NCBI RefSeq assembly: GCF_003334335.1
Contig: NZ_QOWQ01000025.1
Strand: one strand, 5' to 3'
DNA: 64,000 nucleotides
Source of the DNA: Escherichia coli
Lineage (GTDB): Bacteria; Pseudomonadota; Gammaproteobacteria; Enterobacterales; Enterobacteriaceae
This document shows positions 34,981 through 35,165 of this stretch, in pieces (the stretch's first letter is position 1; every line of letters begins with the position of its first letter). The translations under genes were made by a program, and so were the position numbers. The notes beneath the pieces are model-generated. The model was not told where the DNA came from. It searched no databases and saw nothing but the letters and a program-made list of their open reading frames with translations.

Positions 34981-35008
34981 AATCTCCCTTACACGGGCTT
35001 ATTTTTTA
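34981..35008. repeat. attR core (direct repeat AATCTCCCTTACACGGGCTTATTTTTTA)
   Basis: Identical to 1300-1327. Confidence 0.85.
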
Positions 35009-35165
35009 TGCATAAGCCCTATCCCTGGTCACCGTCTTCCATTGACCACATCGATAGAATCTCCCTTCATAGCACGATGCCTTTCACGTAACGGCATCGT
35101 GCTCGCACAGGTTCCGGCTAAGCACAACCAGAACGCGCATGTTTGACGCTTACCAAAAAATATTC

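Follow-up and report, generated by a model that had tools for sequence, protein, structure and literature searches.

A relic of an older P2-like prophage, present in nearly all Escherichia coli, probably accounts for the similarity of the P2 junctions beyond the att core at cyaR

Why should the two junctions of a P2 prophage resemble each other beyond the att core, in DNA that belongs to the phage on one side and to the host on the other? The question is raised by the window, i.e. the whole 64-kb stretch of E. coli DNA analysed here, which carries a P2 prophage of ~33.7 kb (about 1328-34980) with ogr at its left end and int at its right. The prophage lies between two copies of a 28-bp core, AATCTCCCTTACACGGGCTTATTTTTTA, which occurs at only two places in the window (1300-1327 and 34981-35008). 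The insertion site is the classical one at the 3' end of cyaR, and the reconstructed attP is 98.6% identical to that of phage P2 over 800 nt. The core constitutes the 3' half of the cyaR terminator; as in the P2 attB (locI), it is identical to the attP core and overlaps the cyaR 3' end. The genes yegR, yegS and gatR lie to the right of attR. The left host flank, the cores and the parts of the resident prophage that matter here are as follows.

46 to 1155, plus strand: 3' part of trhP (yegQ), left host flank (open reading frame; named yegQ/trhP in matching E. coli genomes)
1238 to 1323, plus strand: small RNA gene cyaR (ryeE) (Rfam RF00112, 100.7 bits, E = 2.9e-21)
1300 to 1327, plus strand: attL core of the resident P2, the 27-nt P2 core plus one base (exact repeat; equal to the attP feature of AF063097)
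1394 to 1646, minus strand: ogr terminator (1394-1417) and ogr gene (1428-1646) of the resident P2 (mapped P2 annotation; open reading frame)
33888 to 34901, plus strand: int, the tyrosine integrase of the resident P2 (open reading frame; att region 98.6% identical to P2)
34867 to 34964, plus strand: int-side arm of attP, with Int arm repeats and the Cox binding region (direct repeat; P2 annotation of the Int "P' arm" and Cox sites)
34981 to 35008, plus strand: attR core of the resident P2 (exact repeat)

A preliminary description of this DNA had claimed a similarity extending imperfectly beyond the 28-bp core, and this claim was reproduced exactly, coordinates and sequences included. The left 30-mer CTGGTCACGTCCACACATTGACCACATCGA (1360-1389) and the right 30-mer CTGGTCACCGTCTTCCATTGACCACATCGA (35025-35054) are identical at 24 of 30 bases when aligned without gaps, or at 27 of 31 columns with two 1-nt gaps, and they have in common an 8-mer, CTGGTCAC, and an exact 15-mer, CATTGACCACATCGA, of which there is no third copy within the window. 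The distance from the core is not the same for the two copies, the left one lying 32 nt away and the right one 16 nt. Local alignment of the post-core flanks gave a score of 38; dinucleotide shuffles gave 14.9 +/- 2.2 with a maximum of 27, and 0 of 1000 reached the observed score. A chance resemblance in AT-rich intergenic DNA, which could appeal to the shortness of the match and to nothing else, is virtually incredible in the face of these shuffles, the confinement of the 15-mer to two places in 64 kb and the graded intermediates, considered below, that connect both forms. The 15-mer is indeed single in empty sites, a situation that the preliminary description had associated with coincidence; the similarity, however, is not due to chance.

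The left copy is phage DNA and coincides with the Int 'P arm' binding site annotated in the P2 record AF063097.

1325 to 1358, plus strand: IHF (integration host factor) site of the ogr-side P2 arm, phage DNA (AF063097 protein_bind IHF, 24324-24357)
1362 to 1389, plus strand: P2 Int arm-type binding site ('P arm'), the left 30-mer minus 2 nt (AF063097 protein_bind Int, 24293-24320, which reads GGTCACGTCCACACATTGACCACATCGA)

According to Nilsson et al. 2011 (PMC3448106), the N-terminal domain of Int recognises arm sites of the P2 type, which are direct repeats of the consensus tgTGGaCa. The left copy has two direct repeats of this type ~11 bp apart, CGTCCACA at 1367-1374 and TGACCACA at 1378-1385 (11 nt), each agreeing with the consensus at 7 of 8 positions. 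The stretch of about 32-34 nt that separates the arm site from the core is annotated as the IHF site, and beyond the arm comes the ogr terminator.

The right copy is host DNA, in which the same arrangement can be recognised in a reduced form.

35009 to 35024, plus strand: shortened spacer of the fossil arm, host DNA, with ~16-17 nt of an IHF-site-like stretch gone (alignment)
35025 to 35054, plus strand: relic of an Int arm-type site, equal to the right 30-mer, host DNA (alignment; present in empty sites)

On examination of the relic, its distal repeat TGACCACA was found intact at 35043-35050 and identical to the live P2 repeat, whereas the proximal repeat has decayed to CGTCTTCC, the proximal half of the host-type arm being of the CCGTCTTCC type. 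Of the two repeats of a P2-type Int arm site only the distal one is left in the host copy, and the spacer in this window, 16 nt as against 32 nt in P2, does not amount to an IHF site. Because only TGACCACA survives, the host copy is to be regarded as a relic and not as a functional member of the arm-site class, and we infer that it now has no role in recombination. Two further observations concern the immediate neighbourhood of the relic. The short-form host flank gives rise to an inverted repeat at 34995-35019, whose arms are ATAAGCCC and, in the core, GGGCTTAT, with TTTTTATGC as the loop; it overlaps the T run of the cyaR terminator and is gone at attL, where cyaR runs into phage DNA. The first 10 nt of the core, AATCTCCCTT, have an exact second copy at 35058-35067, 3 nt beyond the relic arm, which was considered as a third partial core or nested fossil and rejected: 215 of 2000 shuffles reach the local alignment, and the copy is inexact in K-12 and in Escherichia sp. 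MOD1-EC7003.

The host origin of the right copy and its spread were assessed with a synthetic empty site (900-1327 joined to 35009-35600), compared with 5426 complete E. coli genomes. The empty site is contiguous in 4565 of these and 100% identical in several; a 90-nt probe for the relic segment finds one copy in 5285 of the 5426, and in ~1195 genomes a P2-type arm, from a prophage or a remnant, directly follows cyaR. In E. coli K-12 the relic lies downstream of the cryptic P2 prophage PR-X (in the order cyaR core, arm, ogrK, D fragment, partial core) and is therefore older than PR-X.

These data bear directly on one of the two readings in the preliminary description, in which the right flank preserves a scar from a former, since replaced P2-like prophage. 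The reading was right about the kind of event, however not about a recent replacement particular to this strain, given that the relic is present in at least 5285 of the 5426 complete genomes, empty sites included, is shared by a divergent Escherichia lineage and has a decayed attR of its own 0.8 kb further downstream. PR-X itself (cyaR, core, arm, ogrK, D', partial core) is a P2 remnant persisting at the site and to that extent speaks for a recent replacement. Against this, thousands of E. coli genomes have the same flank at an empty site, in some cases 100% identical to the window, and these genomes are too diverse to be cured lysogens of one clone; moreover, the K-12 relic lies beyond the younger remnant, and 6 of the 30 positions in the relic are unlike P2, with 16 nt of the spacer gone. 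We give next to no credence to a recent replacement; the scar is ancient and species-wide, being present in nearly all E. coli, and reflects ordinary prophage decay at an integration hot spot, involving no new mechanism.

No living phage with the host-type arm was found when 34981-35170 was searched by blastn against 50,697 phage records, the matches being to the core and to two records that contain host DNA. Two database entries encountered in the course of this work are to be read with care. GenBank AY639599, 'Phage TP', is K-12-type chromosome that runs from the 3' end of trhP (entered as 'putative protease') through cyaR and the P2 remnant with ogrK to the relic and a part of yegR. Similarly, contig JAIJJM010000051.1, labelled as a Collinsella MAG, has an E. 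coli-type cyaR followed by the P2 attL arm and is likely a binning contaminant.

The motif is the phage's own, and its descent runs from phage to host. P2-like prophages at cyaR in Citrobacter, Buttiauxella, Enterobacter and Trabulsiella share the arrangement ...GAAATAAAAGGATTTATTT-N8-GTCCACA-N4-GACCACATCGA at a constant distance from the core, and phages 11W and fiAA91-ss, which have other cores, yet keep the ogr-side arm repeats. The host copy can be aligned with such P2-like arms column for column, except for the decayed proximal repeat and the missing ~17 nt of IHF-like spacer. Intermediate forms are found in the host DNA itself. The spacer measures 28 nt in E. coli 2012C-4502, a long form shared by 167 genomes. 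In Escherichia sp. MOD1-EC7003 the spacer is IHF-like and 34 nt long (TGCGACTCACTCAATGAAACAGAAGGATTTATCC), so that the 15-mer stands as far from the core as it does in P2; the longer IHF-like spacers are limited to these two forms. In the SCPM-O-B-8794 lineage the arm has wholly decayed and the spacer is retained. The arm-like motif is missing from virgin cyaR-yegS sites, both in the multiple alignment and in the survey of species loci described below.

The other reading in the preliminary description, that attP carries an extended stretch homologous to the host region downstream of cyaR, is accurate as a description, the ogr-side arm of the P2 attP and the host flank being homologous; the direction that it implies does not stand, since the motif is the phage's. 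In its explicit form this reading would have P2 take up host DNA from downstream of cyaR, e.g. by aberrant excision, so that the host-derived homology in attP helps it to find attB. Aberrant excision at attR would indeed place host flank beside the core on the correct side, and the similarity is on the same side in both junctions. However, the motif is an Int arm repeat that also stands twice in the other arm (GTGTCCACA at 34873-34881 and again at 34884-34892), and it occurs in P2-like phages with unrelated cores as well as in prophages of genera whose own flanks are without it. Virgin sites do not have it, and the degenerate copy is the host's. A transfer from host to phage can thus be given very little credence.

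More divergent arm-like sequences of the TGACCAC type were also observed after cyaR in Salmonella enterica subsp. diarizonae and at four other loci, from other genera. P2-like elements appear to use cyaR as a general hot spot across the Enterobacteriaceae.

If an older P2-like element left its arm beside the core, its other end may be sought further to the right. A scan of the genome collection with a cyaR pattern gave at least ~120 species loci, with yegS found downstream in 87; among the matches listed, the yegS start lies 124-293 nt after the cyaR pattern in 66 of these 87. cyaR directly adjoins yegS in E. whittamii, Escherichia sp. E1V33 and strain E69, which are 93-94% identical to the window just upstream of cyaR, and E. 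fergusonii, E. marmotae and E. ruysiae are absent under those names among the matches listed. Since cyaR and yegS are adjacent in 66 of the 87 listed loci, including close relatives, adjacency is taken as the ancestral state. In comparison with such virgin sites, E. coli has ~0.8 kb extra (35009-35811), containing yegR, and the right end of this segment is as follows.

35755 to 35811, plus strand: fossil attR, with a decayed int-side arm (35755-35782) and a decayed core (35784-35811) (alignment to 34951-35008)
35812 to 35897, plus strand: ancestral host flank and yegS promoter region, directly after the cyaR terminator in virgin sites (alignment with E. whittamii, E1V33 and E69)
35898 to 36797, plus strand: yegS, lipid kinase gene, ancestral neighbour of cyaR (open reading frame; annotation; survey of species loci)

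The alignment of 35755-35811 with the int-side arm and core of P2 (34951-35008) has z = 9.8, a score that 0 of 2000 shuffles reach, and its counterpart in MOD1-EC7003 has z = 14.6. The fossil core agrees with the live core at 19 of 28 positions; the MAFFT multiple alignment extends the fossil int-side arm back to 35735; and the fossil attR stops exactly where the homology to the virgin flank (GACTTTCATCCTGTTCTGAC...) starts. The segment thus has att-like direct repeats at both ends with phage arms pointing inward, in the correct orientation, which is also that of the resident prophage, and it is missing from the same locus in related genomes, as befits a prophage remnant. E. albertii (NBRC 107761) has 3.5 kb between cyaR and yegS, where the ogr-side arm breaks off after GTCCAC and, beside a virgin-type flank, an almost intact int-side arm and core remain. 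This insert is an independent, younger P2-like remnant, the product of the same process.

The interior of the fossil has one gene and one candidate structural feature.

35071 to 35103, no strand given: hairpin with 14-nt arms at the position of the ogr terminator of P2 (inverted repeat; has no T run, and no terminator was called)
35166 to 35483, minus strand: yegR, small lipoprotein gene of unknown function, the sole gene inside the fossil (open reading frame; K-12 annotation)

In gene content the segment does not resemble a prophage remnant, as no recognisable phage gene lies inside it; blastn of 35484-35830 matched only one phage record, which has host flank. Because the interior is without detectable phage homology, the case is built on the two att-like ends and on the comparison with virgin sites. 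The whole of yegR falls within the fossil, and virgin sites are without it, so that it is probably foreign DNA; a status as phage cargo would follow from its position only. A search for YegR among phages by tblastn, together with an IMG/VR scan, found no copies other than E. coli-type ones, situated where the records end in host flank, and a search of NCBIfam gave nothing above the cut-off. YegR does match phrog_21109 (E = 1e-71), a match probably explained by phage records running into host flank; since the yegR copies in phage and IMG/VR records sit in host flank, it is not independent evidence. More generally, ON470606 (vB_EcoM-720R8) and phage/prophage records of IMG/VR were seen to extend into yegR, yegS and gatR, so that host genes contaminate phage protein families. 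Variation was also noted within the fossil: in E. coli S6, MOD1-EC7003 and SCPM-O-B-8794 the interior is longer by ~170 nt, the additional DNA lying between CCAAAAAAT and ATTCTCACTC, and the type present in the window has therefore lost further DNA. The core of E. coli S6 is a 1-nt variant, ACACAGGC.

The explanation that we consider very probable is that the host 30-mer is the decayed arm of a much older P2-like prophage at cyaR, and the left 30-mer the live arm of P2. The comparisons given above show what each copy is, how the fossil is distributed and where its two ends lie. An ancient P2-like element would have integrated at the same cyaR core, and its integration would have restored the 3' end of cyaR with an intact core on the cyaR side, since phages of the P2-like kind carry their own copy of that 3' end. 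The older element would have decayed to ~0.8 kb (35009-35811), of which the fossil attL arm, yegR and the fossil attR (the remnant of the int-side arm and the 19/28 core) would remain. Modern P2 would use the regenerated core as its attB, and the live arm at attL together with the fossil arm past attR would mimic an imperfect extension of the att repeat. With an older P2-like arm on one side and a live P2 arm on the other, the similarity of the junctions would thus be one of common descent of two phage arms. Two points may be raised against this account: the two ends of the fossil could derive from separate events, and the longest invariant run of the relic fits neutral decay slightly uneasily.

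This run is the 31-nt ACCGTCTTCCATTGACCACATCGATAGAATC (35031-35061), which covers the relic arm and is the longest invariant run among 33 distinct haplotypes of the E. coli flank, in which 40 of 177 neighbouring positions vary. Permutation of the variable sites matched a run of 31 nt in 115 of 20000 cases; however, because the haplotypes are related, this figure is not a probability, and the invariance of 35031-35061 is a weak hint of constraint and not evidence of function. No Rfam family or terminator was predicted in the relic.

It may nevertheless be asked whether the segment, although a relic by origin, is under selection because it still works, e.g. through the single repeat, 16 nt from the core, binding the N-terminal domain of P2 Int. 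Such a function could consist in more use of this attB (locI, the preferred site), in altered excision at attR or in a host role such as 3'-end processing of yegR. The absence of variation in ACCGTCTTCCATTGACCACATCGATAGAATC in 33 of 33 haplotypes, with the permutation result given above, would fit such a function, as would the 24 nt of it that are unchanged in the divergent MOD1-EC7003 and the identity of the distal repeat TGACCACA to that of live P2. The kinship of the haplotypes weakens the first of these points; similarly, the flanks of E. coli and MOD1-EC7003 are ~82% identical by a hand estimate, so that an identical run of 24 nt is not unusual (~0.2 expected). Furthermore, the proximal repeat and the IHF site, both of which a P2 arm needs, are destroyed; in SCPM-O-B-8794 the arm has wholly decayed while the spacer was kept; neither a terminator nor an Rfam family was detected at the relic; and the canonical attB of arm-binding tyrosine integrases needs the core only (general knowledge; cf. 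PMC3448106). On balance a relic that is still functional is unlikely.

A bolder proposal, which we hold to be decidedly unlikely, is that the relic repeat is not inert, and that purifying selection or repeated use maintains the 31-nt block as a sequence bound by P2-family integrases, within a composite attB made of the core and an arm-type site. If true, such a composite attB would help to explain why locI is favoured over secondary sites, or it would modulate excision at attR, and it would follow that yegR is cargo of the ancient phage that has since been domesticated.

On the preferred reading, that of a decayed arm of a much older P2-like prophage, several consequences follow. With the fossil fixed throughout E. 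coli, a P2 attachment site that counts as 'empty' does not consist of virgin DNA; the textbook empty site would be the left end of an unannotated, species-wide P2-like fossil. E. coli attB substrates accordingly carry half an arm site 16 nt from the core, for which a control is advisable in assays of P2 binding and integration. Direct repeats at the junctions look longer than the true core and could mislead the calling of att sites and prophage boundaries. The orphan gene yegR is likely of foreign origin, and three generations of P2-like elements, namely the fossil, PR-X of K-12 and live P2, would have followed one another at one small-RNA gene. No prior description of the fossil was found in full-text searches of the papers covered here, and the similarity of the flank may have been noticed before.

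Among known systems the nearest is PR-X, the cryptic P2 prophage of K-12 with ogrK and yegZ, reportedly described by Barreiro and Haggard-Ljungquist in 1992 and said to be ~96% identical to P2. Like the fossil, PR-X is a decayed P2-like prophage at the same site, with the cyaR core on its left, a partial core on its right and the ogr-side arm retained. Unlike the fossil, it is young, occurs in some strains only and still has phage genes. The fossil, which adjoins PR-X downstream in K-12, is carried by nearly all E. coli, without a recognisable phage gene or an annotation as a prophage, the PR-X feature in the K-12 annotation stopping at the partial core. A second comparison is with the attP of P2, its arm site and its IHF site. 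The left 30-mer is that arm site itself. Its homologue, the host 30-mer, still has the distal TGACCACA but has lost the proximal repeat and, in this window, the IHF site, and it stands 16 nt instead of 32 nt from the core.

In a wider context, the sdsR locus of Salmonella has received foreign DNA repeatedly and is still a phage attachment site (PMC3333887). As at sdsR and at other 3' ends of small-RNA, tRNA and tmRNA genes, the end of the RNA gene at cyaR would have been regenerated and older elements pushed downstream, with att-like debris left behind. What sets the fossil apart from such cases is that both its ends correspond to the arms of a specific, well-studied attP, and that it has become fixed throughout the species beside the classical P2 site. 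The fossil is a previously unannotated addition to this known class.
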